Shown here: positions 1 through 38,253 of the stretch, piece after piece | How positions within the stretch are numbered: position 1 is the stretch's first letter | Layout: each line of letters opens with the position of its first letter | Origin: Eubacteriales bacterium | GTDB taxonomy: Bacteria; Bacillota; Clostridia; Oscillospirales; CAG-272 | Assembly: GCA_045539995.1 (NCBI GenBank) | Contig: JAZQGJ010000069.1 | Location: forward strand, 1-56,236 | Direction: 5' to 3' | DNA length: 56,236 nucleotides | Notes under the pieces: generated by a model | What the model saw: only the letters and a program-made list of their open reading frames with translations | Databases searched by the model: none | Told to the model about the DNA's origin: nothing | Program-made: the position numbers and the translations under genes

Positions 1-19
1 CTTAAAATTTATTCTAAAA

Positions 20-1246: not shown

Positions 1247-1258
1247 TCGTCTTACCTC

Positions 1259-2065
1259 TTATTTTAATTTATATGCGCGGAGCGCGTTTTTTGCAAATAT
1301 ATTCTCGTATTCGCTTTCACTGTAGCCGAGCGAAAGAAGATATTCTATCTCATTGTCTGCCCGCCACATAGGATAGTCGGTGCCGAAAAGCACTCTGTCG
1401 GTGCCGTAAGCGTCTATTATCCTCTTCATTTCATCCTTTAGAAGAAAGGCTGAGGATGAGGAAGTATCTACGTAGAGGTTTTCAGCGCCCTTCAAGGCTT
1501 TCGCTGCCTCTCCCCAGACAGACCAGCCGCCGAGATGAGCCGCGACAAAGGTGAGGCTCGGGAACTTTTTGATAACGGGCAATATCCTGTTGGGGTTCGA
1601 CCTGTCGTATCTCTTGTCTCCCGCGTGCATCAGTATGGGCACGCCCTTTTTTTCGCATAGGCTGTATATCTTGAGGCATCGCTCGTCATCTACGGCAAAG
1701 TCCTGTATATCGGCGTGCAGCTTTACTCCGTGAAGACCGAGCTCTATGAGATGCTCGAGGTCTGCTTCCATAGTCTTACTTTCGGGATGCATCGTTCCGA
1801 GTCCTATAAGACGGTCACTATGCTCGCAAACTTCTTTTGCTATAAACTCATTTATACGCTTGACCTGATGGGGCGAGGTCGCAAGCGACTGAACTATAAA
1901 CTTGTCAACGTCTGCCCGTCCCTCTCCCGAAAGCAAATCCGAAACTGTTCCCAGATGAAGTGATTTAAGTCCGTAAAAGGTGTCGGTGTGTGCGACTGCT
2001 ATCTCTGCTATTCTGTCGGGATAAACGTGGCAGTGAGCGTCAATTATATAATACTTCTTCGCCAT
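1259..2065 (-). CDS. metal-dependent TIM-barrel amidohydrolase-superfamily protein (amidohydrolase_2/ACMSD-like hydrolase or decarboxylase)
   Basis: 268 aa. N-terminal HCHVYP (HxH metal motif), internal HAD/HLGG histidines and C-terminal FGTDYP aspartate are typical of the family. Its start overlaps the stop of the upstream gene at 2065. Confidence 0.6.
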   Translation of the reverse strand: MAKKYYIIDAHCHVYPDRIAEIAVAHTDTFYGLKSLHLGTVSDLLSGEGRADVDKFIVQSLATSPHQVKRINEFIAKEVCEHSDRLIGLGTMHPESKTMEADLEHLIELGLHGVKLHADIQDFAVDDERCLKIYSLCEKKGVPILMHAGDKRYDRSNPNRILPVIKKFPSLTFVAAHLGGWSVWGEAAKALKGAENLYVDTSSSSAFLLKDEMKRIIDAYGTDRVLFGTDYPMWRADNEIEYLLSLGYSESEYENIFAKNALRAYKLK

Positions 2066-4584: not shown

Positions 4585-5978
4585 CTTTCTGCCTCCTCGT
4601 TTACAATCTTGTTCAATGCGTTGATGTACGCGCCAATAGACGCGCCTATAATGTCTGTGGAAATACCGTTACCCGAATAGAGCTTGCCCTCGTTGCGCAG
4701 CTTGATAAGCGCACTTCCTACTGCCTCTTTACCCTCGGTAACTGCCTGAATCTGAAAATCGTCAAGCTCAAAGTGATGTCCTACTATCTGCTCAAGAGCT
4801 CGGAAGGCGGCGTCTATAGGACCGTCTCCCATAGCTATTCCACTTAAAATTTCTCCGTCGCGGGAGAGCTTTATTTGCGCCGACGAGGAAATTATGTTGC
4901 CGTTGTTTATTACGTAGCTCTCCAGTTTATAGACGGGGGCTGCCTGCATAGCGACGCTCGCAACCACTGCGTCAAGGTCCTTTGCCGTGACCTTTTTCTT
5001 TGCGGCTACCTTTTTAAATTCCTCGTAAACGCGTACGTTGTCCTCGTCTGTGAGGTCATAGCCTAAGCGACGGACGGCGTCGCTCACCGCCTCTATCGTA
5101 TCGTTGATATCAAATACGGCATTGTCATTTTCTGCGTCAAAGGACTTCTTTCCCGAATGGGACGAGCTGTCGCTTCCGCATATCCAGCCTATCTGCTTGG
5201 TAATTCTGTGAAGCTCGTTGTCGTTGATATCCAATTTCACTCCGCAACGGTCACCGCAAAGGCTGAAAACAGATGAAAAAGATTCGGTTTCGGGAATGTC
5301 GGAGGCGCCAACCGCGCATTTCATTTCAGACGCGCCCGCGCGAATAGCCATAAATGCCGACGCGGTCGCCATTCCTATAGAATTTTTACAGAGTATTCCC
5401 ACGCTTACACGGGAAAGCTCGGGTATGTCTTTTTTCAAGTCGCCAAAGAATGAAGCAAATTCGTCGGGAAGCATTACGCCCTCGTCGTCACATAAGGTAA
5501 CGGTGCTTACTCCCGCCTCTATGGCTTCGCAGATAACACGGCGCAGATAATCCCTGTCGGCGCGCGTAGCGTCCTCAGCGAAAAATTCAACGTCGTCGCA
5601 TTTTGCCTTTGCCATAAGGAAAAGGCTGCGGCAAAGCTCAAGCATCTTCTCGGGCTTCTTATGGAATGAGTATTCCATCTGAACGGCAGAGACAGGCATT
5701 TTTACGGCAAGTCTCGCGCGCTTTGCGCCCGAAATAGCCGCCGCCGCTATATTCACACTCTCCTCTGTCACGCCTGTGTCAACGCACAGCGCGCTGTATT
5801 TAATAAACGCAGAGGCCGTTCTTATAAGCAAAGAATCAGTTTTTACGTTATCGATAGGCGGCATGTGGATAACGTCAACCTTCAAATGGTCAAGATGTCT
5901 CGCTATCTCTATCTTTTCTTTGAATGACAAAGCGCTGTGTCTTTGCAGCGTCATATCGGATATAACAATTTTTTTCAC
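4581..5978 (-). CDS. LeuA/HMGL-like protein with C-terminal LeuA allosteric/dimerisation domain; canonical catalytic residues missing
   Basis: 465 aa with a GTG start. It is colinear with 2-isopropylmalate/citramalate synthase. However, DTTLRDGEQ is replaced by SDMTLQRHS and the HxH(D) metal motif by ILCKNS. The C-terminal ~110 aa resemble the LeuA_dimer regulatory domain. Confidence 0.6.
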   Translation of the reverse strand: MKKIVISDMTLQRHSALSFKEKIEIARHLDHLKVDVIHMPPIDNVKTDSLLIRTASAFIKYSALCVDTGVTEESVNIAAAAISGAKRARLAVKMPVSAVQMEYSFHKKPEKMLELCRSLFLMAKAKCDDVEFFAEDATRADRDYLRRVICEAIEAGVSTVTLCDDEGVMLPDEFASFFGDLKKDIPELSRVSVGILCKNSIGMATASAFMAIRAGASEMKCAVGASDIPETESFSSVFSLCGDRCGVKLDINDNELHRITKQIGWICGSDSSSHSGKKSFDAENDNAVFDINDTIEAVSDAVRRLGYDLTDEDNVRVYEEFKKVAAKKKVTAKDLDAVVASVAMQAAPVYKLESYVINNGNIISSSAQIKLSRDGEILSGIAMGDGPIDAAFRALEQIVGHHFELDDFQIQAVTEGKEAVGSALIKLRNEGKLYSGNGISTDIIGASIGAYINALNKIVNEEAER

Positions 5979-6020
5979 TTTCTTCTTCCTTTCGAATATG
6001 ATTAAGCCTCATACCTTAAA

Positions 6021-6286
6021 ACAAAAAGCCCCTGAAGCCTTTTAGGGCTTCAGGGACGAAAAATACTTCCGCGGTACCACCCTGATTACCGTCAAAAAAC
6101 GGTCTCTTTAAGGCTCTGACAAGCCCTTTGCCACGGTAACGGGGCATACCGGAATTTCTTACTGAGGTTCGGAAATTCTGCTCGGGAACGAGACTTTACC
6201 TGCATTCGCACATCGGCTCGCACCAAACGCCGACTCTCTTGTGTACGTCAAAGCAGGAAATAATTCCTTCATAGCATTTAAAAACA
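6021..6286 (-). promoter_or_regulatory. T-box riboswitch leader, specifier read as CUC (Leu), with intrinsic terminator
   Basis: On the minus strand: K-turn GCU-AUGA-A-GGAA...UUCC-C-GA-GC, AG bulge AGAGAG, distal loop GGUGCGA. The T-box sequence AAUCAGGGUGGUACCGCG is the complement of 6069-6083. The terminator stem is CCCUGAAGCC/GGCUUCAGGG plus a U-run (6021-6057). The triplet CUC (6190-6192) followed by G lies immediately 5' of the K-turn-proximal helix. Confidence 0.85.
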
Positions 6287-6292
6287 TAAAGT

Positions 6293-6321
6293 ATTTTACC
6301 ACATAAAAAACGATTTGTCAA
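6293..6321 (-). promoter_or_regulatory. sigma-A promoter of the Leu T-box operon
   Basis: Minus strand reads TTGACA (6316-6321), a 17-nt spacer, then TAAAAT (6293-6298). Confidence 0.7.
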
Positions 6322-6401
6322 CAGTTTTCACTGATTTTTTTCGTTTTTCAGAGTTTTTTCAAATTTGCTCGGTTTGTTCTGAGATTTTGAAGTCCTTTCG
6401 G

Positions 6402-7463
6402 TCAAATCTGATAGGTCCAGCCGAACGTGTCTTCACGCTTGCCCCACTGAATTCCTGTAAGCACGTCATAAAGATGTCCCGTTACCTCGCCTATCTTGCC
6501 GCCGTTGATTTCAAAAACCTTATCCTTATACGCAAGCGTTCCTATAGGAGAAACGACAGCCGCCGTTCCGCAACCCCATGCCTCCTCAAGCTTGCCCTCG
6601 TCGAGTGCGCGCTCAAGCTCATCTATGCTTATTCTTCTCTCGCTTACCTTGTAGCCCTCGCTTTTGAGAAGCTCAATGCAGGACTTTCTCGTAATACCGG
6701 GAAGAATAGAGCCTACAAGAGCGGGAGTAACTATCTCGCCGTCTATTTTGAACATTACGTTCATTGCGCCGACTTCTTCTATATACTTGCGCTCAACGCC
6801 GTCAAGCCAAAGCACCTGAGCATATCCCTTTTCCTCTGCCTTCTGTCCCGCGCGTGTGCTTGCGGCATAGTTGCCTCCGCATTTAGCCTCGCCCGTACCG
6901 CCTCTTACGGCTCTTACGTCATCGGCCTCTATCATTATCTTAACGGGGTTAATGCCCGCCGCGTAGTAGCTTCCGACGGGAGACGTGATAATCACGTAGG
7001 TCGCGCGCTTTACCGAATGAACGCCCAAGCTCTCATCGTTACCGAACATAAAGGGACGGATATAAAGCGACGTTCCCTCTGCCGACGGTGTCCACTCCTG
7101 CTCGAATTCAATGAATTTGGTAAGAGTCTCGAGAGCCACGTCCTCAGGAATAGTAGGAAGGCAAAGGCGCTCTGCCGAACGGTTCATTCTTCTTATATTC
7201 TCGATAGGACGGAAAAGCTGAACCTTGCCGTCTGCCTTACGGTACGCCTTAAGTCCCTCAAATATCTCCGCGCCATAGTGCAGAGCTGTGCAGGCGGGGT
7301 GAATTTGCAGATTACCGAAGGGGACTATTCTCGCGTCGTGCCAGCCCTCGCCCTCTGTGTAATCCATAATAAACATATGGTCTGTAAATATCTTGCCGAA
7401 GCCCAATTTGGAAGGGTCGGGCTTTTCTGCAGGATTAGGATTTCTCGTTATTGAAATATTCAT
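6402..7463 (-). CDS. ilvE: branched-chain amino acid aminotransferase
   Basis: ~353 aa. Class IV aminotransferase pattern (FTDHMF, HYGAEIFEGLKAY, GEAKCGGNY, GITR). ATG 7463 has a GAAGGTGA RBS. The ORF track extends to GTG 7472. Confidence 0.9.
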   Translation of the reverse strand: MNISITRNPNPAEKPDPSKLGFGKIFTDHMFIMDYTEGEGWHDARIVPFGNLQIHPACTALHYGAEIFEGLKAYRKADGKVQLFRPIENIRRMNRSAERLCLPTIPEDVALETLTKFIEFEQEWTPSAEGTSLYIRPFMFGNDESLGVHSVKRATYVIITSPVGSYYAAGINPVKIMIEADDVRAVRGGTGEAKCGGNYAASTRAGQKAEEKGYAQVLWLDGVERKYIEEVGAMNVMFKIDGEIVTPALVGSILPGITRKSCIELLKSEGYKVSERRISIDELERALDEGKLEEAWGCGTAAVVSPIGTLAYKDKVFEINGGKIGEVTGHLYDVLTGIQWGKREDTFGWTYQI

Positions 7464-7501
7464 TTCTTTCACCTTCTTAATAATTAAAAAATTAAAGCTT
7501 A

Positions 7502-8041
7502 TTACTTATAATTTTTTCCTAAACGGATTGCGCCTAAGTTTACGTCAAGCATATCCGCGCGCTTTGCCGAAATTACCTTCTTAAGCGCAGCGAGGATTGT
7601 CTCCTCGTCGTCAAAGTCGCCCATATCAGCGAGCACCTTGCCCATAATTATCATATTTGCAAGGGTGGGCGTCTTGTTTTCGTCAGCCATCTTCGTGGCG
7701 GGTATGTAGTGAACCGTCACGTCCGTTCTCTTAACCTTGCGCTCGATAAGAGAGGAATCCACGTAAATCGTGCCGCCGGGCACAACGCTGTCCTCGTACT
7801 TGTCAAGCGAGGGGAGATTCATCGCTATAAGAACGTCGGGGTTAGATACTATAGGAGAGCCTACGGGCGTATCACTCAGAATTACGCTGCAGCTCGCCGT
7901 ACCACCTCTCATTTCGGGGCCGTAGGAGGGGAGCCAGCTTACGTTCTTTCCCAAATTCAAGCCTCCGTAAGCCAAAAACTTACCCGCGAACAAAATTCCC
8001 TGTCCGCCGAAGCCTGCGAATAAATATTCTGTCGTTTTCAT
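7502..8041 (-). CDS. 2-oxoacid:ferredoxin oxidoreductase gamma subunit (Kor/Vor type)
   Basis: 179 aa. GFGGQGI N-terminal motif and the POR/KOR/VOR gamma-domain pattern. It lies in a delta-alpha-beta-gamma gene string. Confidence 0.85.
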
Positions 8042-8055
8042 CTTCTTCTCTCCTC

Positions 8056-8799
8056 TCAGTTGTTTGCGCTTCTGTCCTTATATACTCCGAGAGGATAATA
8101 AGGAATCATTTTTTCGTCTATCCATTCAAGCGCCTTTTTAGGTGTCATACCCCAGTTGGTAGGACAGGAGGAAATAACCTCTACAAGAGAAAAGCCCTTT
8201 CCGTTCACCTGATTTTCAAACGCCTTTTTAATAGCCTTCTTCGCGTTCTTTACGTTCTTTACGTTGTTTACCGCAACGCGCTCAAGGTATTCGGGGCCGT
8301 CAAGCTGTGAAAGCATCTCGCATACCTTTATAGGAAAGCCGCAGTGATTTACGTCGCGTCCGTAGGGGGAGGTCTGCGTTACCTGTCCGGGAAGCGAGGT
8401 GGGCGCCATCTGTCCGCCCGTCATACCGTAAATCGCGTTATTTATAAAGATAACCGTGATATTCTCGTTTCTTGCGGCGCTGTGTACGGTCTCCGCCATA
8501 CCTATTGAAGCGAGGTCGCCGTCTCCCTGATATGTAAATACTATATTTTCGGGGTCAGAGCGCTTAACGCCTGTCGCTACTGCGGGCGCGCGTCCGTGTG
8601 CCGCCTCTATCATATCGCAGTTGAAATAATCATACGCCATAACCGAGCATCCTACAGGCGCTATACCTATCGTTCTGCCCTCAATTCCAAGCTCATCCAA
8701 AACCTCGGCTACAAGACGGTGAACAATACCGTGAGTACAACCGGGACAATAGTGCAGAGGCAAATCTGCCAATGCGTGAGGTTTATCAAATACTACCAT
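8056..8799 (-). CDS. 2-oxoacid:ferredoxin oxidoreductase beta subunit (TPP-binding)
   Basis: 247 aa. CPGCTHG cysteine motif and the GDGD...NN TPP-binding motif (YQGDGDLASIG...INNAIYGMTGGQ). Confidence 0.88.
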   Translation of the reverse strand: MVVFDKPHALADLPLHYCPGCTHGIVHRLVAEVLDELGIEGRTIGIAPVGCSVMAYDYFNCDMIEAAHGRAPAVATGVKRSDPENIVFTYQGDGDLASIGMAETVHSAARNENITVIFINNAIYGMTGGQMAPTSLPGQVTQTSPYGRDVNHCGFPIKVCEMLSQLDGPEYLERVAVNNVKNVKNAKKAIKKAFENQVNGKGFSLVEVISSCPTNWGMTPKKALEWIDEKMIPYYPLGVYKDRSANN

Positions 8800-8800
8800 C

Positions 8801-9874
8801 TTATTTACCTACCCTTTCTGCCGCTTTTTCAATAGACGCCAAAACCTGCTCGGGAGACGGAATCATACCGCCGCTTCTGTTGCAGAGTGTAACGGGCGCC
8901 TTGTCGCTTATAGCCAAACGAACGTCCTCTATCATCTGTCCCATAGAAAGCTCTACCGAGATAAATTCCTTTACCTTTTCTGCTGCCTTCGCAAAGGGCT
9001 TTTCGGGGAACGGCCAGAGAGTGATGGGACGGATAAGACCTACCTTAATTCCCTTTGCTCTCGCCTCGTTTATTGCGTTCTTGGATACACGAGCGGCGAT
9101 ACCGAATGCAGCTACGCAAATTTCAGCATCATCCATCATATATTCCTCATACATTACTTCGTTTTCTTTTATCGCCTCGTAACGCTCATAGCGCTCAAAG
9201 TTGGTACGCTCAAGCTCCTCGGGCTTCAAAAACAGAGAGTTTACTATGTTGTGCTTTCTCTCCATCTTCGTGCCAGTTACTGCCCAGGGCTTTTCGGGCG
9301 ACGGCGCAGGTGAGAAGTCGAGAGAAACAGGCTCCATCATCTGTCCCATAGTTCCGTCCGCCAAAATCATAGAGGTCATACGGTATTTGTCGGCAAGGTC
9401 AAAGCCGTGTACCGTAAGCTCTGCCATTTCCTGTACTGACGCGGGCGCTAAAACTATCATATGGAAGTCGCCGTGCGCGCCGCCCTTTGTCGCCTGAAAA
9501 TAGTCGGACTGCGAGGGCTGAATACCACCGAGACCGGGGCCGCCTCTCTGTACGTTTACGATAAGCGCGGGAAGGTCTGCTCCCGCAAGATATGAAATAC
9601 CCTCGCCCTTAAGAGAAATTCCGGGGCTTGAGGATGACGTCATAACTCTCTTTCCCGTAGCGGAAACTCCGTATACCATATTTATTGCCGCTATCTCGCT
9701 TTCAGCCTGAAGAAATACGCCGCCTATTTTGGGCATTCTCTTTGCCATATATGCCGCAATCTCCGTCTGGGGAGTGATAGGATATCCGAAATAGTGGCGG
9801 CAGCCTGCAATAATAGCCGCTTCGGCTATCGCTTCGTTACCCTTCATTAAAACCTTATCTGCCATTTCTTTCAC
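8801..9874 (-). CDS. 2-oxoacid:ferredoxin oxidoreductase alpha subunit
   Basis: 357 aa. N-terminal LMKGNEAIAEAAIIAGCRHYFGYPITPQTE is typical of KorA/VorB alpha subunits. Confidence 0.88.
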   Translation of the reverse strand: MKEMADKVLMKGNEAIAEAAIIAGCRHYFGYPITPQTEIAAYMAKRMPKIGGVFLQAESEIAAINMVYGVSATGKRVMTSSSSPGISLKGEGISYLAGADLPALIVNVQRGGPGLGGIQPSQSDYFQATKGGAHGDFHMIVLAPASVQEMAELTVHGFDLADKYRMTSMILADGTMGQMMEPVSLDFSPAPSPEKPWAVTGTKMERKHNIVNSLFLKPEELERTNFERYERYEAIKENEVMYEEYMMDDAEICVAAFGIAARVSKNAINEARAKGIKVGLIRPITLWPFPEKPFAKAAEKVKEFISVELSMGQMIEDVRLAISDKAPVTLCNRSGGMIPSPEQVLASIEKAAERVGK

Positions 9875-10077
9875 CTCTCTACCTTAATAATACAGTCGGG
9901 GCACATTGTCGCGCAGAACGCGCAGCCTATGCACGACTCCTCTTTCACCGCTTTTACAGGGTGGTGGCCTTTTTCGTTAATCTCGTCCTCTGCTATCGCA
10001 AGAACGCCCTTTGGACATACGTCTACGCAAAGACCGCAGCCCTTACATTTTTCGGTCTTGAATGTCAGCTTTGCCAT
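9871..10077 (-). CDS. 2-oxoacid:ferredoxin oxidoreductase delta subunit (2x[4Fe-4S] ferredoxin)
   Basis: 68 aa with two CxxCxxCxxxCP clusters (CKGCGLCVDVCP, CIGCAFCATMCP). It overlaps the alpha subunit start. Confidence 0.88.
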   Translation of the reverse strand: MAKLTFKTEKCKGCGLCVDVCPKGVLAIAEDEINEKGHHPVKAVKEESCIGCAFCATMCPDCIIKVER

Positions 10078-10090
10078 TTTTATATCTCCT

Positions 10091-10747
10091 TTACATATGT
10101 TTCTGTAATATTATCTCGCGGAAGCTCTCCCCTGTTTCGAGGAGTCTGTCGGTCAATTTACGTACCGTCGTATATATCATAGGAATATTTGCTCTTTCTG
10201 CAAGAGCCTTTGACATAGCAATGCTTCCTATAATATCGTCGTCGGAGGTCTCTGCCCCCAAATTCGAGTTGTTGACGATTGCCGTAAACTTAAGTTTACA
10301 CGCATCCTCTATCTCACGCATAACCTCGAGAGCGCTTTCAACGTCTCTTGTCAGAGGTCGGAACGTATTTAAGACGTATAGCATTTCGTAATCGTTTTCC
10401 TCGTCTATCTTCGGCGCTATGCGTCCGAGCGCCAAGGCGCCTCGCTCGTCTCCTCCCACGTCAAGCACGCAATAAAGCTCTTTATCGTCGGTTATCGCGT
10501 ATATATCCTGAGGGAGCGCGGGAATATCTATATTCGTGTTCGCGTACGGCGAGCATATAAGACGTATTCCCTTTTCACAAAAAAGCTCTTCGCTGTCCTT
10601 GGTTCTGAAATAGGGATTTACTATATCTATATCGGCAACCGCAACGCGCTCGTGTCTCGTTTTCAGGTCAAGCGCGATATTTACGGCTATATTTGTTTTT
10701 CCGCTGCCGTAATGTCCCGACAGTATTGTAATTCTTTTATCCTTCAT
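10091..10747 (-). CDS. P-loop NTPase (SIMIBI MinD/ParA/CooC-like), function unknown
   Basis: 218 aa. Walker A GHYGSGKT near the N-terminus and a Walker-B-like LDVGGD. It sits between the acyl-CoA synthetase fusion and the oxidoreductase genes with 13-23 bp gaps. Confidence 0.6.
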   Translation of the reverse strand: MKDKRITILSGHYGSGKTNIAVNIALDLKTRHERVAVADIDIVNPYFRTKDSEELFCEKGIRLICSPYANTNIDIPALPQDIYAITDDKELYCVLDVGGDERGALALGRIAPKIDEENDYEMLYVLNTFRPLTRDVESALEVMREIEDACKLKFTAIVNNSNLGAETSDDDIIGSIAMSKALAERANIPMIYTTVRKLTDRLLETGESFREIILQKHM

Positions 10748-10770
10748 TTTACTTCTTGTATAATTTGTTT

Positions 10771-13056
10771 TTAAAGCAGATTTCTCTGAATTTTTCCGCT
10801 TGCAGTCTTAGGAAGCGAGTCCTTGAATACTACTATTCTCGGATATTTGTAGGGCGCCGTATGCTCTTTTACGTAATTCTGTATTTCACGCTTGAGCTCG
10901 TCTGTGCCCTCCGTGCCCTTTACTAAGACTATGCTTGCCTTTACTACCTGACCTCTCACCTCATCGGGCGCGGCGGAAACTCCGCATTCAAGCACGTAGG
11001 GCAATTCCATAATAACGCTTTCTATCTCGAACGGACCTATGCGATAGCCCGACGACTTAATGACGTCATCGACACGTCCGACGTAGTAATAGAAGCCGTC
11101 CTCGTCACGCCACGCAAGGTCGCCTGTGTGATAATATCCGTCGTAGCGTACCTCGTCCGTCTTTTCGGGGTCGCCGTAATACTCGGTAAACAGACCGCAG
11201 GGAGAGCCGTTTGATATATTAACAACGATTTCTCCCGACTCACCGACGGGAACAGGCTTTCCGTCTGAGGAAAGCAGCTCGACGTCATAAATAGGCGCAG
11301 GCTTACCCATAGAGCCTATCTTGTGAGGCGCGCCTGTGAGGTTGCCTATTATCATCGTGCTTTCCGACTGTCCGAAGCCCTCGAGTATCTGAAGCCCTGT
11401 AGCTTCCTCAAACTTGCGGTAAACCTCAGGATTGAGTGCCTCGCCTGCCGTCGTCATATGTTTAATAGATGAGAGGTCATATTTTGAAATGTCCTCTTTT
11501 ATTAACATTCTGAGCATCGTGGGGGGCGCGCAGAAGGTCGTTATCTGATATTTTGCGAACATCGGCAGAATGTCGGACGCGTTAAACCTGTCAAAGTCGT
11601 ATACGAAGGTCGCGCCCTCGCAGAGCCACTGTCCGTAGAACTTGCCCCAAAGAGCCTTCGCCCAGCCCGTGTCCGAAATTGTGAAGTGAAGTCCGTCAGG
11701 GTCTACGTTATGCCAATACTTCGCCGTATGGAAATGACCGAGCGCATATTTATAGTTGTGCGCCGCTATCTTAGGATAGCCCGTAGTGCCCGACGTGAAG
11801 AACATCAGCATAGGGTCGTCTCCTGCGGGGGTGTCGTCCCTTCGCTCGAAATGCGTGCTGAACATACTGCATTCCTCGTCGAAATTACGCCAGCCCTCTC
11901 TCTCTCCACCTACGATTATCTTGTGAAGCAGCTGAGGGCATTTCTTCGCCGCGATATCCACCTGCTCGGCAACCGCGCCCTTCGAGGTGCAAAGTATGGC
12001 GCTTACGCCCGCTTTATTAAAGCGATACTCGAAATCGTGGTCTAAGAGCTGATTCATCGCGGGAATCGCCACCGCGCCTATTCTGTGAAGCGCGAGCATA
12101 GCGAACCAGAACTGATAGTGTCTGCCAAGCACGAGCATTACCTTGTCTCCCTTTTTAATACCGAGAGAACGGAAATAGTTTGCCGCGCGGCAGGAATTTT
12201 TCTTTATATCGGAATATGTAAAGCGGCTCTCCGTCTTATCGTTGGCTATATGCAGAAGCGCCAGCTTGTTCGGACTTTTCTTCGCTATTTCGTCAACGAT
12301 ATCGTAAGCAAAATTGAACTTGTCTATATTCTTGAAGGTGATAGAGGTAGGCGTTCCCTGCTCGTTTTCCTCCGTGTCGATAAATTTGTTATATACTCTT
12401 TCCTCGGTGTCACGGCGAACGGGGGCAGCCACTTCTCTTTTCTGCGCCTTAAGCTCGGGTATTTCCGCGCCTGTGGGATTAAGAACGAAGGCGTAGAATG
12501 AGCAGTCCTCGCCGTTTACGGCTATCATACCGTGAGGCGTCGAGCTATCGTAATAGATACTGTCGCCAGGACCGAGAATTTCCTTATGCTCGCCTATCTG
12601 TATCTTGAGATGTCCCTCAATTACGATATCGCATTCCTGTCCCTCGTGAGTTGTAAGCTCTATATCCTTTACCTGAGCGTCCTCGCTGTATTTACTGCAC
12701 ACGTAGAGGGGCTCGGCAATTCTCTTCTTAAAAGAGGGAGCAAGGTTGAAATAGGTCATTCCGTGAGCCTGCTCTATTCTCTGTCCCATTCTCGCGCGAG
12801 TGAGCGTATAGGACTTAAGCGTCGGGCTCTTACCCTCTATAATATCGGTAACGTCAACGTTGAAGGCAAGCGCGCAGCGATATATAAAGGCGAAGTTGAG
12901 GTCTGAGCGTCCGTTTTCGCAGTCGCTGTACTCCTCTTCGGAAACGTTGGTTTTCAAAGCCATCTCTGCTACGGTATAGCCCTCTATTTCACGAAGCTCA
13001 CGTATTCGGTTAGCCATTTCTTGAATTTTATAATCAAGAGCTGTGATGTTTTGCAT
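10771..13056 (-). CDS. tripartite fusion: XRE-family HTH + cupin + AMP-forming (medium/short-chain) acyl-CoA synthetase, paralog 1
   Basis: 761 aa. Residues ~10-75 form an HTH_XRE domain (RIRELREIEGYTVAEMA...). Residues ~110-195 form a cupin (HEGQECDIVIEGHL...GDSIYYDSSTPHG). Residues ~230-761 carry FTSGTTGYPK, GFGQSE, YHTGD and GRVDDVIKSSGYRIGP. AAGGAG RBS precedes ATG 13056. Confidence 0.8.
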   Translation of the reverse strand: MQNITALDYKIQEMANRIRELREIEGYTVAEMALKTNVSEEEYSDCENGRSDLNFAFIYRCALAFNVDVTDIIEGKSPTLKSYTLTRARMGQRIEQAHGMTYFNLAPSFKKRIAEPLYVCSKYSEDAQVKDIELTTHEGQECDIVIEGHLKIQIGEHKEILGPGDSIYYDSSTPHGMIAVNGEDCSFYAFVLNPTGAEIPELKAQKREVAAPVRRDTEERVYNKFIDTEENEQGTPTSITFKNIDKFNFAYDIVDEIAKKSPNKLALLHIANDKTESRFTYSDIKKNSCRAANYFRSLGIKKGDKVMLVLGRHYQFWFAMLALHRIGAVAIPAMNQLLDHDFEYRFNKAGVSAILCTSKGAVAEQVDIAAKKCPQLLHKIIVGGEREGWRNFDEECSMFSTHFERRDDTPAGDDPMLMFFTSGTTGYPKIAAHNYKYALGHFHTAKYWHNVDPDGLHFTISDTGWAKALWGKFYGQWLCEGATFVYDFDRFNASDILPMFAKYQITTFCAPPTMLRMLIKEDISKYDLSSIKHMTTAGEALNPEVYRKFEEATGLQILEGFGQSESTMIIGNLTGAPHKIGSMGKPAPIYDVELLSSDGKPVPVGESGEIVVNISNGSPCGLFTEYYGDPEKTDEVRYDGYYHTGDLAWRDEDGFYYYVGRVDDVIKSSGYRIGPFEIESVIMELPYVLECGVSAAPDEVRGQVVKASIVLVKGTEGTDELKREIQNYVKEHTAPYKYPRIVVFKDSLPKTASGKIQRNLL

Positions 13057-13083
13057 TTTTTCTCCTTTTTTGGAACTTACGGG

Positions 13084-13353
13084 ACAAAAAAACTCGTCCC
13101 AAAGATAAATACTTTGAGACGAGTCCTAAAAAACAAAACCCGCGGTACCACTCAAATTGCGATTCAAAATCGCCGCTCAAGGTCAAACAACCCGTATGTA
13201 CTAACGCAACATTATCGGAGAGAGTCTACTTGATTTCTCTTTCTTTCTCTCAGCTCGGAAGCTACAAACATACGCAGCGTCTTAACGGCTTGCACCATCT
13301 ACCGTCTCTCTGTGAAAACACACGCGAATATCCTCTTCGTCAAAGCCTTTATA
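13084..13353 (-). promoter_or_regulatory. T-box riboswitch leader, specifier read as GUA (Val), with intrinsic terminator
   Basis: Minus strand: K-turn GCU-UUGA-C-GAAG...CUUC-C-GA-GC, AG bulge AGAGAG, distal loop GGUGCAA. The T-box AAUUUGAGUGGUACCGCG is the complement of 13141-13161. The terminator stem is 13092-13104/13112-13124 plus a U-run. GUA (13263-13265) followed by G lies immediately 5' of the K-turn-proximal helix. Confidence 0.85.
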
Positions 13354-13359
13354 TCGGTT

Positions 13360-13388
13360 ATTTTATCACGACTCAAAGCATTTGTCAA
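13360..13388 (-). promoter_or_regulatory. sigma-A promoter of the Val T-box operon
   Basis: Minus strand reads TTGACA (13383-13388), 17 nt, then TAAAAT (13360-13365). Confidence 0.7.
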
Positions 13389-13433
13389 TATATTTTTCAA
13401 AAAAATCGAATTTTTGTTGAATTTGTCGCAGCT

Positions 13434-15695
13434 TTATAGCTTATTTCTTTGAATTTTTCCGCTTATTGTCTTGGGAAGCTCTTGCCTGAACTCGACAATT
13501 CTCGGATATTTATAGGGAGCCGTATGCTCTTTTACGTAATTCTGTATCTCACGCTTGAGCTCGTCTGTGCCCTCCTTGCCCGGCACGAGAACGATACACG
13601 CCTTAACGACCTGTCCTCTCACCTCGTCGGGCGCCGCAGTAACACCGCATTCAAGCACGTAGGGCAATTCCATGATTACGCTTTCTATCTCGAACGGGCC
13701 TATACGGTAGCCCGACGACTTAATAACGTCATCGGCGCGTCCGACGTACCAGAAATATCCGTCCTCATCGCGCCAAGCTGTATCGCCCGTATGATAATAG
13801 CCGTCGTGCCATACGTCCTTCGTTTTCTCTTCCTCTTTGTAATAGCCATTGAAGAGACCGCAGGGAATCTTATCGCTTGTCTTGATAACGATTTCGCCCG
13901 TCTGACCTGTGGGAACGGGATTTCCGTCAGAATCAAACAGAGAGATGTCGTAGAGGGGTACTGCCTTACCCATAGAGCCTACCTTACATTTGCTGCCCAT
14001 AAGGTTAGCTATTGACAGAGTAGTTTCGGTCTGTCCGAAGCCCTCCATTATGGAAAGTCCCGTCGCCAGCTCGAACTGACGGTGAACCTCAGGGTTGAGC
14101 GCCTCGCCTGCCGTCGTCATATGCTTGATTGAAGACAGGTCGTATTTCGAGATGTCCTCTTTTATTAACATTCTGAGCATTGTGGGGGGCGCGCAGAAGG
14201 TGGTAATATTATATTTTGCGAACATCGGCAAGATTTCCGACGCGTTGAATTTATCGAAGTCGTAGGTAAATACGCCGCTCTCACAAAGCCACTGTCCGTA
14301 GAGCTTGCCCCAGAGAGCCTTGCCCCAGCCTGTCTCGGAAATCGTGAAGTGGAGTCCGTTTTCATAGACGCCGTGCCAATATTTCGCGGTTATATAGTGA
14401 CCTAAGGGATATTTATGGCTATGCACGGCTATCTTCGGATAGCCTGTAGTACCCGACGTGAAGAACATAAGCAGAGGGTCGTTTCCGCAGGCGGTATTTT
14501 CGTCGCGGTAGAAATGCGCGCTATAGAGCGAATACTCATCGTTGAAGCTATGCCAGCCCTCTCTCTCTGCGCCGACGATTATCTTTGTAGCGAGAGGACA
14601 GCTCTTTTCGGCAAGCTCGACCTGATGCGCGACGTCTCCGTCAGAGGTGCACACGATGGCGCTGACCTCAGCCGCCTTGAAGCGATAATCGAAGTCGTGC
14701 TCTTGTAAGAGGTTTGTCGCGGGAATAGCGACAGCTCCCAGCTTATGTAGGGCAAGGATAGCGAACCAGAACTGATAATGGCGCTTAAGCACGAGCATTA
14801 CCTTGTCGCCCTTCTTAATACCGAGAGCGCGGAAATAGTTCGCCGTCATATTCGACGCGCGCTTCATATCACGGAAGGTAAAGCGGTTTTCTCTGCCGTT
14901 TTTGTCTATGTGAAGCATAGCGAGCTTGTTAGGCTCCTTTTTCGCTATCTCGTCGACTATATCGAAGGCAAAGTTGAACTTGTCCTCGTTTTCAAAATCT
15001 ATCTTTGTAAGGGTGCCGTTTTCGTCCTCCTCGGTATGAATGAAGCGGCTGCTTACAAGCTCCTTCTTTTCTACTCGCGAAGCGAGAGTCGCTCTCGTCG
15101 TTTGCTCGGGGATAGTCTCGCCGGGCAAAACGACGGCGAGGAAAAGGCACTCTCTGCCATCGACGGCAATCATACCGTGAGGGGTTGCGCTATTGTAATA
15201 AATGCTGTCGCCCTCGCTGAGATATTCGACGTGGTCGCCTATCTGTACCTTGAGTCGTCCACTCATGACGAAGTCGAATTCCTGTCCCGAATGAGTCGCG
15301 AGCGCTATAGGCTTATCCTGCAATTTTTCGTCATACTCGTATTTTACCCAATAGGGCTCGGAGAGCTTCTTGCGGAAAAGAGGTGCTAAGTTCTTTATCT
15401 CTATTCCGTCCTCCTTCGCAGTCTCCTGTCCGTTTCCTTTTCTTGTAATAGTGTAAGAGGAAAGCGATGCGCTTTGTCCTTCAAGCAGGTCCGTAATGTC
15501 GATGCCGAAAACCAACGCGCACTTGTGAAGAAATGAGAAGGGATAATCCTTGGAGCCCGCCTCGTATTCAAGGTATTGCTCTACGCTCACTTCGGTCTTT
15601 CGTGCCATTTCTTCTATTGAAATACCGTCTATCTCGCGCATTTCCTTAATTCGCAGAGCGACCTCTAAAAGCTTGTTTTCAGATGAACCTGACAT
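13434..15695 (-). CDS. tripartite fusion: XRE-family HTH + cupin + AMP-forming acyl-CoA synthetase, paralog 2
   Basis: 753 aa from ATG 15695, with a GGAGGTG RBS at 15701-15707. The domain order matches 10771-13056. It contains long identical peptide blocks (ITTFCAPPTMLRMLIKEDISKYDLSSIKHMTTAGEALNPEV). The ORF-track start at 15770 runs into a non-coding tandem repeat and is rejected. Confidence 0.8.
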   Translation of the reverse strand: MSGSSENKLLEVALRIKEMREIDGISIEEMARKTEVSVEQYLEYEAGSKDYPFSFLHKCALVFGIDITDLLEGQSASLSSYTITRKGNGQETAKEDGIEIKNLAPLFRKKLSEPYWVKYEYDEKLQDKPIALATHSGQEFDFVMSGRLKVQIGDHVEYLSEGDSIYYNSATPHGMIAVDGRECLFLAVVLPGETIPEQTTRATLASRVEKKELVSSRFIHTEEDENGTLTKIDFENEDKFNFAFDIVDEIAKKEPNKLAMLHIDKNGRENRFTFRDMKRASNMTANYFRALGIKKGDKVMLVLKRHYQFWFAILALHKLGAVAIPATNLLQEHDFDYRFKAAEVSAIVCTSDGDVAHQVELAEKSCPLATKIIVGAEREGWHSFNDEYSLYSAHFYRDENTACGNDPLLMFFTSGTTGYPKIAVHSHKYPLGHYITAKYWHGVYENGLHFTISETGWGKALWGKLYGQWLCESGVFTYDFDKFNASEILPMFAKYNITTFCAPPTMLRMLIKEDISKYDLSSIKHMTTAGEALNPEVHRQFELATGLSIMEGFGQTETTLSIANLMGSKCKVGSMGKAVPLYDISLFDSDGNPVPTGQTGEIVIKTSDKIPCGLFNGYYKEEEKTKDVWHDGYYHTGDTAWRDEDGYFWYVGRADDVIKSSGYRIGPFEIESVIMELPYVLECGVTAAPDEVRGQVVKACIVLVPGKEGTDELKREIQNYVKEHTAPYKYPRIVEFRQELPKTISGKIQRNKL

Positions 15696-15707
15696 AAAAA
15701 CACCTCC

Positions 15708-15927
15708 ATAAAAATTGAAAATTGAAAGTTGAAAATTGAAAATTATTGAATAAATCCTCTCGGAGTTCAATCAAATTAAATTAAAATAAAAATTGAAAAT
15801 TGAAAATTGAAAATTATTGAATAAATCCTCTCAGAGTTCAATCAAATTAAATTAAAATAAAAATTGAAAATTGAAAATTTAAAATTATTGAAAAAATCCT
15901 TTCGGAGTTCAATCAAACTAAATTAAA
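15708..15927. repeat. tandem repeat, three units (78+71+71 bp), each containing an internal AAAATTG heptad run
   Basis: Units start at 15708, 15786 and 15857, each beginning ATAAAAATTGAAAATTG...AATCCTCTCGGAGTTCAATCAAATTAAATTAAA. The first unit carries one extra heptad. The array lies in the 5' UTR between the Ile T-box terminator and the RBS. Confidence 0.9.
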
Positions 15928-15928
15928 A

Positions 15929-16232
15929 TAAAAAACGCCTCAAAGAAAAATCTTCTTTGAGACGGGTGAAATCTATACACTCGCGGTACCACTCAAATTG
16001 CGTCGATGACGCCACTTAGGGAGACTAACAACTCCTGCGCACTAACGCTGCGCTCCTCGCGAACTCCTACTGCACTTTTCAGAATTCGGGCTCAAAAGCG
16101 ATGGGTAATGACCTACTGCGTTATGGCTTGCACCTTCCGCCACTTCTCTGCGCCGCATAAAAAGGGTTACCGTCTTTATCATAGCCTTTATGAAATTACC
16201 TGCGGGGAAATAAGAACTATTTCCACATTTAT
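15929..16232 (-). promoter_or_regulatory. T-box riboswitch leader, specifier read as AUC (Ile), with intrinsic terminator
   Basis: Minus strand: K-turn GCU-AUGA-U-AAAG...CUUU-U-GA-GC, AG bulge AGAGAAG, distal loop GGUGCAA. The T-box AAUUUGAGUGGUACCGCG is the complement of 15982-16002. The terminator stem is 15936-15945/15955-15964 plus a U-run. AUC (16100-16102) followed by G lies immediately 5' of the K-turn-proximal helix. Confidence 0.85.
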
Positions 16233-16238
16233 GCCGTA

Positions 16239-16267
16239 AGTATATCACAGTATTTTTGATTTGTCAA
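16239..16267 (-). promoter_or_regulatory. sigma-A promoter of the Ile T-box transcript
   Basis: Minus strand reads TTGACA (16262-16267), 17 nt, then TATACT (16239-16244). Confidence 0.65.
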
Positions 16268-16299
16268 GAGTTTTTTTATATTTTTTTTGCAAAATTCAA

Positions 16300-16371
16300 A
16301 AAGTATAAATAAAAAAGAAGAAACACCGCCAAACGAAACCGTTTGTTCAATCAAACCTTAATAAAAGCTCG
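16300..16371 (-). terminator. putative terminator after metA (long-loop hairpin)
   Basis: The 10-bp arms GAAGAAACAC (16308-16317) and GTGTTTCTTC (16361-16370) are followed by a U-run on the minus strand. The loop holds a nested CAAACG/CGTTTG hairpin. Confidence 0.45.
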
Positions 16372-16468
16372 TGTTTCTTCTATAAATATTATACCATAAA
16401 CAAAATAAAAAGTCACCTTTTTTCGTTTAGAAACCTTGCTCTTTATCTGCCTTGCAGGAGGGCGTCGG

Positions 16469-37272: not shown

Positions 37273-37320
37273 ACTTCTCCTCCAAATAATCTAAAATATA
37301 ATCAAAGCCTGCAAAAAGCC

Positions 37321-38208: not shown

Positions 38209-38253
38209 ATGCTTGTATTCCTCCAACTCAATAAAATCTGCAAATAAATATAC

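Follow-up and report, generated by a model that had tools for sequence, protein, structure and literature searches.

The window analysed here, a 56,236-nt stretch from Eubacteriales bacterium (CAG-272; GCA_045539995.1, contig JAZQGJ010000069.1, positions 1-56,236 of the forward strand), derives from an uncultured gut Clostridia bacterium and carries a three-T-box locus which, judged from its sequence, is probably a tRNA-gated salvage regulon for converting exogenous branched short-chain acids to branched-chain amino acids (BCAAs). All modules lie on the minus strand, in an island of amino-acid biosynthesis genes that includes met, lys/dap, his and trpB. The original prediction proposed a route of acyl-CoA ligation, reductive carboxylation and transamination induced by uncharged tRNA, and the T-box specifiers, the match of ligase clades to these specifiers and the family cut-offs passed by the VorB-type subunit and IlvE make this reading well supported computationally; each computational check that might have refuted it turned out in its favour. 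The three modules were found where they had been placed (16267-6021), but the Leu operon was seen to continue further, so that the feature reaches down to approximately base 1259. The gene content expected (ligases, P-loop ATPase, oxidoreductase and ilvE) agreed with domain and NCBIfam matches. For the Leu operon the third ligase was correctly listed, while a LeuA-like protein and an amidohydrolase had been overlooked. The features are as follows.

16239..16267, minus strand: promoter P1, TTGACA-17-TATACT, TG extended -10 (11/12 match)
15955..16191, minus strand: T-box leader 1, Ile, specifier AUC at 16102-16100 (RF00230 and Stem I covariation)
15936..15964, minus strand: intrinsic terminator of T-box 1, 13-bp stem and U tract
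15718..15934, minus strand: 71-bp unit in 3.1 tandem copies, located in the 5' UTR from terminator 1 to the ligA start
13434..15695, minus strand: ligA, XRE-HTH, cupin and short-chain acyl-CoA synthetase, 753 aa (domain and family matches)
13360..13388, minus strand: promoter P2, TTGACA-17-TAAAAT, TG extended -10 (11/12 match)
13112..13352, minus strand: T-box leader 2, Val, specifier GUA at 13265-13263 (RF00230 and Stem I covariation)
13089..13127, minus strand: intrinsic terminator of T-box 2, 16-bp stem and U tract
10771..13056, minus strand: ligB, XRE-HTH, cupin and short-chain acyl-CoA synthetase, 761 aa (66% identical to ligA)
10091..10747, minus strand: conserved SIMIBI-class P-loop NTPase, 218 aa (sequence matches)
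9871..10077, minus strand: oxidoreductase delta subunit, 2x[4Fe-4S] ferredoxin, 68 aa (domain matches)
8801..9874, minus strand: oxidoreductase alpha subunit, VorB subfamily (NF005507)
8056..8799, minus strand: oxidoreductase beta subunit, TPP-binding (domain matches)
7502..8041, minus strand: oxidoreductase gamma subunit (domain matches)
6402..7472, minus strand: ilvE, class IV branched-chain aminotransferase (NF009897)
6293..6321, minus strand: promoter P3, TTGACA-17-TAAAAT, TG extended -10 (11/12 match)
6049..6281, minus strand: T-box leader 3, Leu, specifier CUC at 6192-6190 (RF00230 and Stem I covariation)
6028..6057, minus strand: intrinsic terminator of T-box 3, 12-bp stem and U tract
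4581..5978, minus strand: LeuA-like pseudoenzyme, HMGL-like barrel and LeuA_dimer (allosteric) domain (domains, motif loss)
2065..4584, minus strand: xylose-isomerase-like TIM barrel fused to a FadD/ACSF2-type acyl-CoA ligase, 839 aa (domains, model)
1259..2065, minus strand: amidohydrolase_2 family enzyme (metal ligands conserved)
20..1246, minus strand: trpB, tryptophan synthase beta, 12 nt 3' of the amidohydrolase gene

An RF00230 scan, a promoter search and folding confirmed three complete modules of promoter, T-box and terminator. The best three sigma-70 matches in bases 1-17000 were P1, P2 and P3. All three leaders covered positions 1-219 of the covariance model and were thus full-length T-box matches, with scores of 123.3 bits (E 6.6e-27) at 6281-6049, 93.4 bits at 13352-13112, which is at the gathering score of 93 bits, and 80.4 bits at 16191-15955, which is below it (E 1e-17, local scan). 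The model alignment placed AUC-G, GUA-G and CUC-G directly 5' of the K-turn-proximal helices CUUU, CUUC and UUCC, as had been claimed, and the proposed common architecture of a K-turn (UGA...GA), AGAGA bulge, GGUGNRA distal loop and GGUGGUACCGCG core was present in each leader. The UGGU bulge, which implies a tRNA discriminator A73, was found in the three leaders and in 166/166 related leaders; in leader 1 it lies in a T-box core at about 15998-15982, and this leader has an additional 5' hairpin (16224-16206). The default minimum-energy fold of all three expression platforms was Stem III and a terminator hairpin followed by the U tract (z -2.2 to -4.0), and the antiterminator helices aligned by the model are mutually exclusive with these terminators, which lie upstream of the regulated gene. 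By sequence, the leaders are transcription-attenuating T-boxes with predicted read-through on uncharged tRNA. No tRNA-Ile, tRNA-Val or tRNA-Leu gene was present within the window. The 71-bp repeat is apparently peculiar to the source species.

Relatives belonging to at least 80 species, for the most part gut and rumen MAGs of Acutalibacteraceae/Oscillospiraceae, keep the locus. Across 80 related loci the genes and leaders run T-box, ligA, T-box, ligB, P-loop NTPase, delta, alpha, beta and gamma subunits, ilvE, T-box, leuA-like gene and TIM-ligase gene, with or without the amidohydrolase gene, and the same order was obtained by independent gene calls on a 404-kb contig. In a scan of the 450 nt upstream of each gene, a T-box core preceded ligB in 72/78 evaluable cases, ligA in 52/55 and the leuA-like gene in 32/40, and none was detected ahead of internal operon genes of the related loci. 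The Ile specifier was AUC in 53/53 leaders, the Val specifier GUA (58) or GUC (3) in 61/62, and the Leu specifier CUC (23) or CUG (4) in 27/30, with CCC at this position in one related leader (L043). The changes GUA/GUC and CUC/CUG are synonymous, whereas neighbouring bases vary. When Stem I of 117 leaders was aligned, compensatory changes were found in 20/20 predicted pairs, and the specifier fell in unpaired columns with variable neighbours. Covariance model and cross-species conservation therefore agree on BCAA codons in the specifier loops, a point on which the prediction could have failed. A few lineages have no T-boxes and carry a single operon of leuA-like gene, TIM-ligase gene, ligA, ligB, P-loop NTPase gene, oxidoreductase genes and ilvE, which ties the Leu module to the remaining genes.

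All three ligases contain AMP-binding and AMP-binding_C domains (E 1e-62 to 1e-94), which places them by sequence among the ANL superfamily AMP-forming acyl-CoA synthetases. The best solved relative of the ligA and ligB catalytic domains was 3ETC from Methanosarcina (E 1e-181 to 1e-183), a protein whose preferred substrate we take to be 2-methylbutyrate. The best NCBIfam family was MbcS (NF047394 equivalog); membership was rejected, since ligA and ligB scored 443.7 and 431.9 bits against an equivalog cut-off of 850, and both are nearer to 3ETC. Their specificity is consequently predicted from sequence similarity and pocket residues. The acids that MbcS selectively activates are 2-methylbutyrate and isobutyrate, and it uses isovalerate poorly (PMC10026030; PMC13584741). 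Ligases preferring acetate, propionate or aromatic acids had been named as evidence against the proposed route, and ligA and ligB instead appear closest to enzymes for small alpha-branched acids. The HTH-cupin-ligase paralogues form two clades that agreed with the T-box specifier in 112/112 cases. Only three class-specific columns lie in the catalytic domain, in GW[G/A]K, where Gly is common to the Ile class and 3ETC and Ala marks the Val class, and just past the QTET/QSES motif; in acetyl-CoA synthetase both segments line the acyl pocket. A further 8/13 class-specific columns are in the N-terminal (HTH-cupin) region. We predict ligA to be a 2-methylbutyrate-CoA ligase and ligB an isobutyrate-CoA ligase.

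Strict specificity of the oxidoreductase for 2-oxoglutarate or pyruvate would likewise have spoken against the route. The full-length alpha subunit scored 547.6 bits against the VorB model NF005507 (cut-off 399), which points to a 2-oxoisovalerate-type enzyme, while the beta, gamma and delta subunits reached no curated NCBIfam cut-off and scored best with 2-oxoglutarate-type models. IlvE exceeded the equivalog cut-offs of NF009897 (480.9 against 307 bits) and TIGR01123 (399.9 against 250 bits). As a candidate role, the SIMIBI NTPase may mature the oxidoreductase or otherwise assist it. The idea of switching per amino acid fits the ligase modules, each of which has its own T-box, but not the oxidoreductase and ilvE, which are gated by the Val T-box only, so that pure Ile or Leu limitation would need basal read-through.

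The Leu module contains a catalytically dead LeuA-like protein, a TIM-barrel-ligase fusion and the amidohydrolase_2 enzyme. The first, a hypothetical protein in the NCBI annotation, was rejected as a 2-isopropylmalate synthase, as its best score was 277.5 bits against an equivalog cut-off of 532 and the catalytic and metal motifs are gone: HCHND is changed to LCKNS, and 41/41 orthologues have neither RDGEQ (deleted or replaced) nor the HxH metal ligands. Its best-conserved part is the C-terminal LeuA_dimer domain, and its stop overlaps the start of the TIM-ligase gene by 4 nt. The fusion protein is most likely an isovalerate-CoA ligase, and the poor use of isovalerate by MbcS, the best family for ligA and ligB, would account for a separate ligase type. 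In the TIM domain of the fusion, acidic and His residues characteristic of metal-dependent isomerases, epimerases and dehydratases are invariant, a confident predicted structure gave the barrel of such enzymes, and the domain is possibly active. The amidohydrolase gene follows the TIM-ligase gene in 19/30 evaluable loci and is dispensable in 11/30. The adjacency of trpB to it is not kept in relatives, so trpB is probably outside the module.

Under the salvage reading, Ile limitation would leave uncharged tRNA-Ile to stabilise antiterminator 1, giving ligA and 2-methylbutyryl-CoA. Val limitation would open T-box 2 and with it ligB (isobutyryl-CoA), the P-loop NTPase, the four-subunit oxidoreductase and IlvE, and Leu limitation would open T-box 3 for the TIM-barrel ligase, likely to activate beta-branched isovalerate. 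With reduced ferredoxin, the oxidoreductase would reductively carboxylate the acyl-CoAs to 2-oxoacids (this direction is proposed), and IlvE would transaminate these to Val, Ile and Leu. No terminators were found between the modules, and a transcript started at a promoter further upstream would therefore enter the next T-box and be checked again, a serial gating. Further metabolite control is conceivable, speculatively, through the dead LeuA-like protein, which has an allosteric domain and whose translation would be coupled to that of the third ligase, as well as through the HTH-cupin domains of ligA and ligB.

Two other uses of the same enzymes were weighed against salvage. The ligases could supply lipid primers only, making branched acyl-CoA primers when BCAA-derived ones run short, with the oxidoreductase and IlvE working oxidatively; supplying such primers is the role known for MbcS, the best-matching named family, in Staphylococcus aureus (PMC10026030). 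The T-boxes switch on with uncharged tRNA, however, so a Val-consuming flux through IlvE and the oxidoreductase would be counter-productive during Val starvation, and both the one-to-one match of specifier codon and ligase clade and the setting in an amino-acid biosynthesis island point to amino-acid supply. We therefore disfavour a function in lipids only and consider it improbable; dual use of the acyl-CoAs is likely, and those formed at this locus probably also prime branched-chain lipid synthesis. Scarcely credible is a catabolic BCAA fermentation, in which IlvE and the oxidoreductase would lead to acyl-CoA and acid with conservation of energy, as 2-oxoacid:ferredoxin oxidoreductases and branched-chain aminotransferases are used in proteolytic anaerobes (bioRxiv 10.1101/2019.12.11.873224). 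AMP-forming ligases work toward acyl-CoA at a cost of two ATP equivalents and so would not be used for acid release, a gene-content search of the cluster detected neither phosphotransacylase/kinase nor ADP-forming synthetase, and induction by substrate would be the opposite of T-box logic.

A doubtful but more serious variant accepts the Ile and Val modules as proposed and lets the Leu module process another Leu-related precursor to isovaleryl-CoA or 2-oxoisocaproate. The plain isovalerate route needs neither the TIM-barrel domain nor the amidohydrolase_2 enzyme, and yet the former keeps its acidic and His residues in a confidently modelled barrel and the latter its metal ligands and, in most evaluable loci, its place after the ligase. 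Against this, the ligase is the sole component of the module with clear chemistry, lineages lacking T-boxes have the module in the same operon as the ligA, ligB and oxidoreductase genes, the weak isovalerate use of MbcS already accounts for a different ligase, and the amidohydrolase can be dispensed with.

Returning to salvage, we also entertain, tentatively and as an unlikely whole, a multi-layer sensor-enzyme system, going further than a T-box regulon with unusual cargo and made up jointly of four readings. The HTH-cupin region may make ligA and ligB enzyme/regulators or ligand-gated enzymes; the dead LeuA may be a leucine-sensing subunit exerting feedback on the TIM-fused isovalerate ligase; the SIMIBI NTPase may mature the oxidoreductase or drive the thermodynamically hard reductive direction; and the locus may be the sole BCAA route in many Oscillospirales. 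The last, if true, would account for the long-known need of ruminococci for branched acids as growth factors.

T-boxes respond to uncharged tRNA by induction. The leaders described here resemble those of Firmicutes T-box operons such as Bacillus subtilis ilv-leu in the Stem I K-turn, specifier loop, AG bulge and distal loop, in Stem III, the UGGN antiterminator bulge and the terminator, and in uncharged-tRNA induction, which here is predicted; the Leu T-box of ilv-leu also shows that a T-box for one amino acid can gate enzymes common to three BCAAs. Unlike classical T-boxes, the Val leader only just reaches the gathering threshold of Rfam and the Ile leader stays below it, and unlike in T-box BCAA operons the cargo is acyl-CoA ligases and a ferredoxin-dependent 2-oxoacid oxidoreductase rather than the acetolactate/isopropylmalate pathway, with three T-boxes in series each gating one ligase of predicted precursor specificity. 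LigA and ligB share the ANL-family short-chain acyl-CoA synthetase fold of MbcS and Methanosarcina acetivorans 3ETC but carry about 235 N-terminal residues of XRE-HTH and cupin that both relatives lack, and whereas the MbcS product feeds lipid primers, the operon around ligA and ligB suggests amino acids as the destination. The oxidoreductase shares with the 2-oxoisovalerate:ferredoxin oxidoreductase (VOR) found in archaea and anaerobes its four subunits (delta, alpha, beta and gamma), TPP and [4Fe-4S] clusters, and a reaction that is reversible in principle; it differs in being encoded with a conserved SIMIBI P-loop NTPase and in the 2-oxoglutarate-type best scores of three subunits. With LeuA the LeuA-like protein shares an HMGL-like barrel and the LeuA_dimer domain, which in LeuA binds Leu for feedback inhibition, but it has lost RDGEQ and HxH and falls far under the equivalog cut-offs.

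Searches of the literature in full text turned up no account of tRNA-gated branched-acid salvage wiring. Labelling of branched volatile fatty acids into BCAAs of rumen bacteria has reportedly been followed by Allison and colleagues since the 1960s. The same three acid-to-BCAA conversions are proposed here; the earlier work was physiology, without genes or regulation, whereas we propose a gene set and tRNA control per amino acid. Rumen bacteria carboxylate isobutyrate to Val, 2-methylbutyrate to Ile and isovalerate to Leu (PMC7356843), and carboxylation of branched acids to BCAAs in rumen bacteria also figures in the reference list of PMC7709123, a 2020 Prevotella bryantii paper in which the reverse reaction is called 'not proven yet' at the enzyme level. 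The present locus would thus supply genes, and a mode of regulation, for a salvage route that labelling had revealed.

The whole window was scanned with Rfam at the gathering threshold, and the stretch 15700-16500 was rescanned permissively. Two T-box leaders, both on the minus strand, reached the threshold and the permissive scan gave a third. In a simple consensus scan of bases 1-17000 three promoter-like sites stood far above all others; all three scored 11/12, with a 17-nt spacer and a TG extended -10. These elements and the genes behind them are given here in the order of transcription.

16267-16239, minus strand: P1, promoter of leader 1 (consensus scan)
16191-15955, minus strand: T-box leader 1; permissive scan, 80.4 bits, below gathering, full model 1-219, E 1e-17
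16102-16100, minus strand: specifier AUC (Ile) of leader 1 (covariance-model alignment)
13434-15695, minus strand: ligA; XRE-type HTH, cupin and AMP-forming acyl-CoA synthetase
13388-13360, minus strand: P2, promoter of leader 2 (consensus scan)
13352-13112, minus strand: T-box leader 2; Rfam, 93.4 bits, barely reaching the gathering score of 93
13265-13263, minus strand: specifier GUA (Val) of leader 2 (covariance-model alignment)
10771-13056, minus strand: ligB; XRE-type HTH, cupin and AMP-forming acyl-CoA synthetase
10091-10747, minus strand: P-loop NTPase; adjoins ligB or ilvE, 5' of the delta gene, in 74 of 80 loci
6321-6293, minus strand: P3, promoter of leader 3 (consensus scan)
6281-6049, minus strand: T-box leader 3; Rfam, 123.3 bits
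6192-6190, minus strand: specifier CUC (Leu) of leader 3 (covariance-model alignment)
4581-5978, minus strand: LeuA-like protein, 465 residues; HMGL-like and LeuA_dimer domains
2065-4584, minus strand: TIM-ligase fusion, 839 residues; xylose-isomerase-like TIM barrel and FadD/ACSF2-type ligase
1259-2065, minus strand: amidohydrolase_2 enzyme; metal ligands conserved
20-1246, minus strand: trpB, above the TIGR00263 cut-off; 12 nt past the amidohydrolase

Rfam, the promoter scan and folding thus agreed on the three promoter, T-box and terminator modules of the original prediction, whose promoter positions match the consensus-scan sites exactly. All three expression platforms by default adopted Stem III and a long hairpin with a U tract behind it, and the leaders are therefore off-by-default transcription attenuators. 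Neither reading of the sequence nor a terminator scan revealed a terminator between ligA and P2 or between ilvE and P3, so that transcripts arriving from upstream would be re-checked at the next T-box. When the promoter regions were searched for an HTH operator, only TTTTTTnAAAAAA, an A/T-rich UP-like element, was seen; none of them held a class-specific palindrome.

Covariance-model alignment of the 3' side of the specifier loop (eight nt) gave ...cAUCG/CUUU for leader 1, ...UGUAG/CUUC for leader 2 and ...uCUCG/UUCC for leader 3, each specifier being followed by a purine and then by the basal helix. These are the Ile, Val and Leu codons that had been predicted. The antiterminator bulge was UGGU in 166/166 related leaders, as expected for the predicted pairing with an A73 discriminator, which is common to bacterial tRNA-Ile, tRNA-Val and tRNA-Leu.

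Several additional elements were observed around leader 1. The 5' UTR from its terminator to the ligA start is filled by 3.1 copies (95% matches) of a 71-bp unit (15718-15934, minus strand); the corresponding spacer behind leaders 2 and 3 measures just some 30-45 nt. Within each unit there are AAAATTG sub-repeats and a weak promoter-like TTGAAC-17-AATAAT, and elsewhere in the window only a 10-nt core of the repeat was found (16345-16354). Between the P1 -10 and Stem I lies a perfect 7-bp inverted repeat, GGAAATA-gttct-TATTTCC (16206-16224, minus strand), which lengthens the 5' end of the leader by about 35 nt relative to related loci and might act as an additional RNA hairpin or as an operator. 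The gap between metA and P1 (16300-16416, minus strand) contains a promoter-like GTGACT-17-TATAAT with TG and, downstream, a long-loop hairpin, GAAGAAACAC...GTGTTTCTTC, with a U tract that includes the TTGATTGAAC core of the 71-bp repeat. This element could specify a small transcript or be the metA terminator.

Conservation was examined using ligB as probe against a species-representative genome collection, where 574 stretches contained a relative and the best 80 were analyzed. Nearly all of these 80 loci were from gut or rumen MAGs that carry the labels Acutalibacteraceae, Oscillospiraceae, Ruminococcus, Eubacteriales or Clostridia. One of them, L001, was 99% identical to the window, which places the source of the window among the uncultured members of this group. 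Mapping of the window proteins and a T-box core gave a near-constant order: T-box, ligA, T-box, ligB, P-loop gene, delta, alpha, beta and gamma oxidoreductase genes, ilvE, T-box, leuA-like gene, TIM-ligase gene and, in some, the amidohydrolase gene. Variants had ilvE immediately 3' of ligB, or the Leu module (the genes behind T-box 3) divergent and upstream. The order was reproduced on a 404-kb contig with independent gene calls and precomputed Pfam matches. Among evaluable cases a T-box core lay within 450 nt upstream of ligB in 72 of 78, of ligA in 52 of 55 and of the leuA-like gene in 32 of 40, and never upstream of the internal genes.

The specifier of each leader was read as the triplet 5' of the purine preceding the K-turn-proximal helix. 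All 53 ligA leaders read AUC, the 62 ligB leaders gave GUA (58) and GUC (3), and the 30 leuA-like leaders gave CUC (23) and CUG (4). Four leaders (one ligB, three leuA-like) gave triplets other than branched-chain codons; two of these were heuristic misreads, and the leader 5' of the LeuA-like gene in related locus L043 (1256-1351) has the Pro codon CCC in place of CUC/CUG, which might reflect misassembly, decay or a genuine specifier change. RNAalifold analysis of 117 Stem I sequences aligned with MAFFT predicted 20 pairs, with compensatory changes in all 20. The specifier columns were unpaired, and the triplet was invariant or changed only synonymously while the flanking bases varied. A covariance alignment could have placed codons for other amino acids in these loops, which the original prediction had named as contrary evidence; the alignment placed branched-chain codons there, and these are kept across relatives.

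At the Rfam gathering threshold the Leu leaders were found reliably and the Ile and Val leaders only sometimes, with scores of about 93 bits (L009, L013, L020, L026, L064, L081 and the window). Of four examined loci carrying the full set of three, three have just one or two listed at this threshold. As the Ile and Val leaders lie at or under the gathering score in the window and in relatives, automatic annotation will often miss them. Recognisable T-box cores were absent, with the genes joined in a single operon, from L060, L070, L073 and L055, and from the Leu module in L056, L059 and L068. In the few T-box-less lineages the single operon runs leuA-like, TIM-ligase, ligA, ligB, P-loop, oxidoreductase and ilvE, which indicates that the Leu module is functionally tied to the rest.

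The remainder of the window is an amino-acid biosynthesis island (metA, O-acetylhomoserine sulfhydrylase, lysA, ddh, dapB, dapA, aspartate kinase and a complete his operon) in which no ilv/leu biosynthesis genes were found. No riboswitch or T-box was detected 5' of metY-metA in the window at the gathering threshold; related locus L062 has an additional T-box core (~7557) 5' of its metA homologue. A lysine riboswitch (RF00168, 44085-44251, plus strand, 94.9 bits) is followed by an ORF for a Na+/H+ antiporter-family membrane protein extending to 45963; a lysine riboswitch 5' of a predicted lysine transporter is a known and ordinary arrangement. The stretch 36379-39144 (minus strand) holds a tandem array of three xylose-isomerase-like TIM-barrel (AP_endonuc_2) paralogues, beside CinA, GalT and PfkB kinase genes.

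LigA and LigB are 66% identical, and the top NCBIfam family of both is MbcS, below its equivalog cut-off. The closest solved structure was by a wide margin 3ETC (E 1e-181 and 1e-183), which we take to be the acyl-CoA synthetase of Methanosarcina acetivorans with a preference for 2-methylbutyrate. MbcS is selective for 2-methylbutyrate and isobutyrate, works poorly on isovalerate and does not accept acetate (PMC10026030, PMC13584741). When 112 ligases encoded 3' of a leader with a readable specifier were divided into two groups by average-linkage clustering, the split fell between 52 AUC-linked and 60 GUA/GUC-linked ligases with zero errors, and the nearest neighbour was of the same specifier class for all 112. 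Only 13 alignment columns were class-specific. Three of these are in the catalytic domain, GW[G]K (Ile) versus GW[A]K (Val) and two shortly after QTET/QSES, in segments which presumably correspond to the acyl-pocket lining of acetyl-CoA synthetase; Ingram-Smith 2006, as cited in PMC13584741, is the paper of relevance here. These columns offer a lead to specificity determinants; 3ETC has Gly at the GW[G/A]K position, as does the Ile class, and pairing of the smaller residue with the larger substrate is as the salvage model predicts. Eight of the other ten columns are in the HTH end and the stretch ahead of the cupin, a hint from the alignment that the N-terminal domain may also tell the two pathways apart.

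The oxidoreductase alpha subunit exceeded the NCBIfam VorB subfamily cut-off (547.6 vs 399 bits), the delta, beta and gamma subunits had the expected domains and reached no curated cut-off, and IlvE exceeded two equivalog cut-offs. Sequence matches of the P-loop protein were weak and confined to the N-terminal Walker A region (ParA, CbiA and Mrp-like models), and the fold matches of its structural model (pLDDT 86.5) were limited to generic SIMIBI NTPases, among them SRP GTPases and ATPase-type HypB (TM 0.51-0.62). A NifH-like electron donor was considered and rejected, given these generic matches and a sequence with no Cys at switch II and no CxxC. Our guess is a cofactor-maturation or helper factor for the oxidoreductase. 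The protein has an invariant loop, LICSxYANxNxDIPALPQDIY, and one invariant Cys, in a region modelled at low confidence; the loop may be an interaction or ligand site.

The gene content originally predicted, two ligase fusions, a P-loop protein, the oxidoreductase, ilvE and a third ligase, was borne out; in the Leu operon the LeuA-like protein and the amidohydrolase had been missed. The LeuA-like protein, annotated by NCBI as hypothetical, scored far below the LeuA cut-offs. Alignment to solved LeuA structures showed the HCHND metal motif changed to LCKNS, and the RDGEQ motif and two histidines were absent from all 41 orthologues. Mean top-residue frequency was highest in the C-terminal allosteric domain (0.79, versus 0.61 in the barrel), and the stop codon overlaps the next gene start by 4 nt in the window and in L081. 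The best reading of these sequences is that the dead LeuA-like protein would be a regulatory, Leu-sensing partner. The family of the TIM domain in the TIM-ligase fusion is narrow (210 matches, almost all of identical fusion architecture) and has invariant Glu, Asp and His residues; the confident model of the domain (pLDDT 88.5) is a generic superfamily barrel, closest to AsbF, Art22, IolI and UlaE (TM ~0.7). That the domain is a paralogue of the AP_endonuc_2 genes at 36379-39144 was rejected, identity being only 23% over a fragment. The amidohydrolase gene was found 3' of the ligase gene in 19 of 30 evaluable loci; among solved structures the enzyme is closest to an uncharacterised protein and to decarboxylases of the ACMSD type. 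The trpB gene apparently lies within the Leu T-box operon and is the only trp gene that the window contains; a role in indole-to-Trp salvage is possible. We rejected it as a module member since this adjacency occurs in no relative with enough flank.

Isovalerate is the best reading for the predicted substrate of the fusion, since MbcS, the best named family for LigA and LigB, handles this beta-branched acid poorly and a different ligase type would be needed. That the Leu arm is instead a more complex precursor route we regard as a serious though less likely alternative. With isovalerate as the Leu precursor, the locus would provide one ligase for each branched acid, LigA being predicted to activate 2-methylbutyrate and LigB isobutyrate.

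That branched volatile fatty acids serve fibre-degrading rumen and gut Clostridia as growth factors and as precursors of BCAAs has been recognised since the 1960s, and for this reason branched acids are used in dairy cattle feed. To our knowledge the genes and control of the route have so far been vague. The locus supplies a definite and widely conserved set of genes in which every precursor ligase has its own tRNA-sensing switch, and this defined set and simple regulatory logic make the branched-acid pathway directly testable. As the original prediction had supposed, a full-text literature search found no description of the locus or of T-box control of acyl-CoA ligases or VOR (an earlier note is possible), and neither of two T-box surveys, Wels 2008 and the TBDB paper, mentions cargo of this kind. 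In Prevotella bryantii the reverse reaction was still called unproven at the enzyme level in 2020 (PMC7709123). The components have all been described before (T-boxes, VOR, BCAT, MbcS-type ligases and reductive carboxylation); what appears to be new is the class of cargo under T-box control, together with the serial, per-precursor design. The T-box regulon would thereby be widened from making, charging or importing an amino acid to scavenging its degradation product and rebuilding it. Three uncharacterised architectures are also brought to light, the HTH-cupin-ligase fusion, a dead LeuA with its allosteric domain and the TIM-barrel-ligase fusion.

Every computational test run was in line with the predicted salvage route, and from the sequences we consider it likely to be correct. 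Uncharged tRNA-Ile, tRNA-Val or tRNA-Leu would open its own module, the ligases would spend ATP to trap exogenous branched acids as CoA esters, the oxidoreductase would reductively carboxylate these with ferredoxin, and IlvE would complete the amino acid. The anabolic direction is favoured because T-box logic is starvation induction and AMP-forming ligases run towards acyl-CoA, and it agrees with classical labelling physiology (PMC7356843). The acyl-CoAs probably double as lipid primers. The weak point of the salvage model is that the oxidoreductase and IlvE are gated by Val only. Such control of shared enzymes by one amino acid has a precedent in the ilv-leu operon of Bacillus subtilis, where Leu alone gates the enzymes as Val does here for the oxidoreductase and IlvE.
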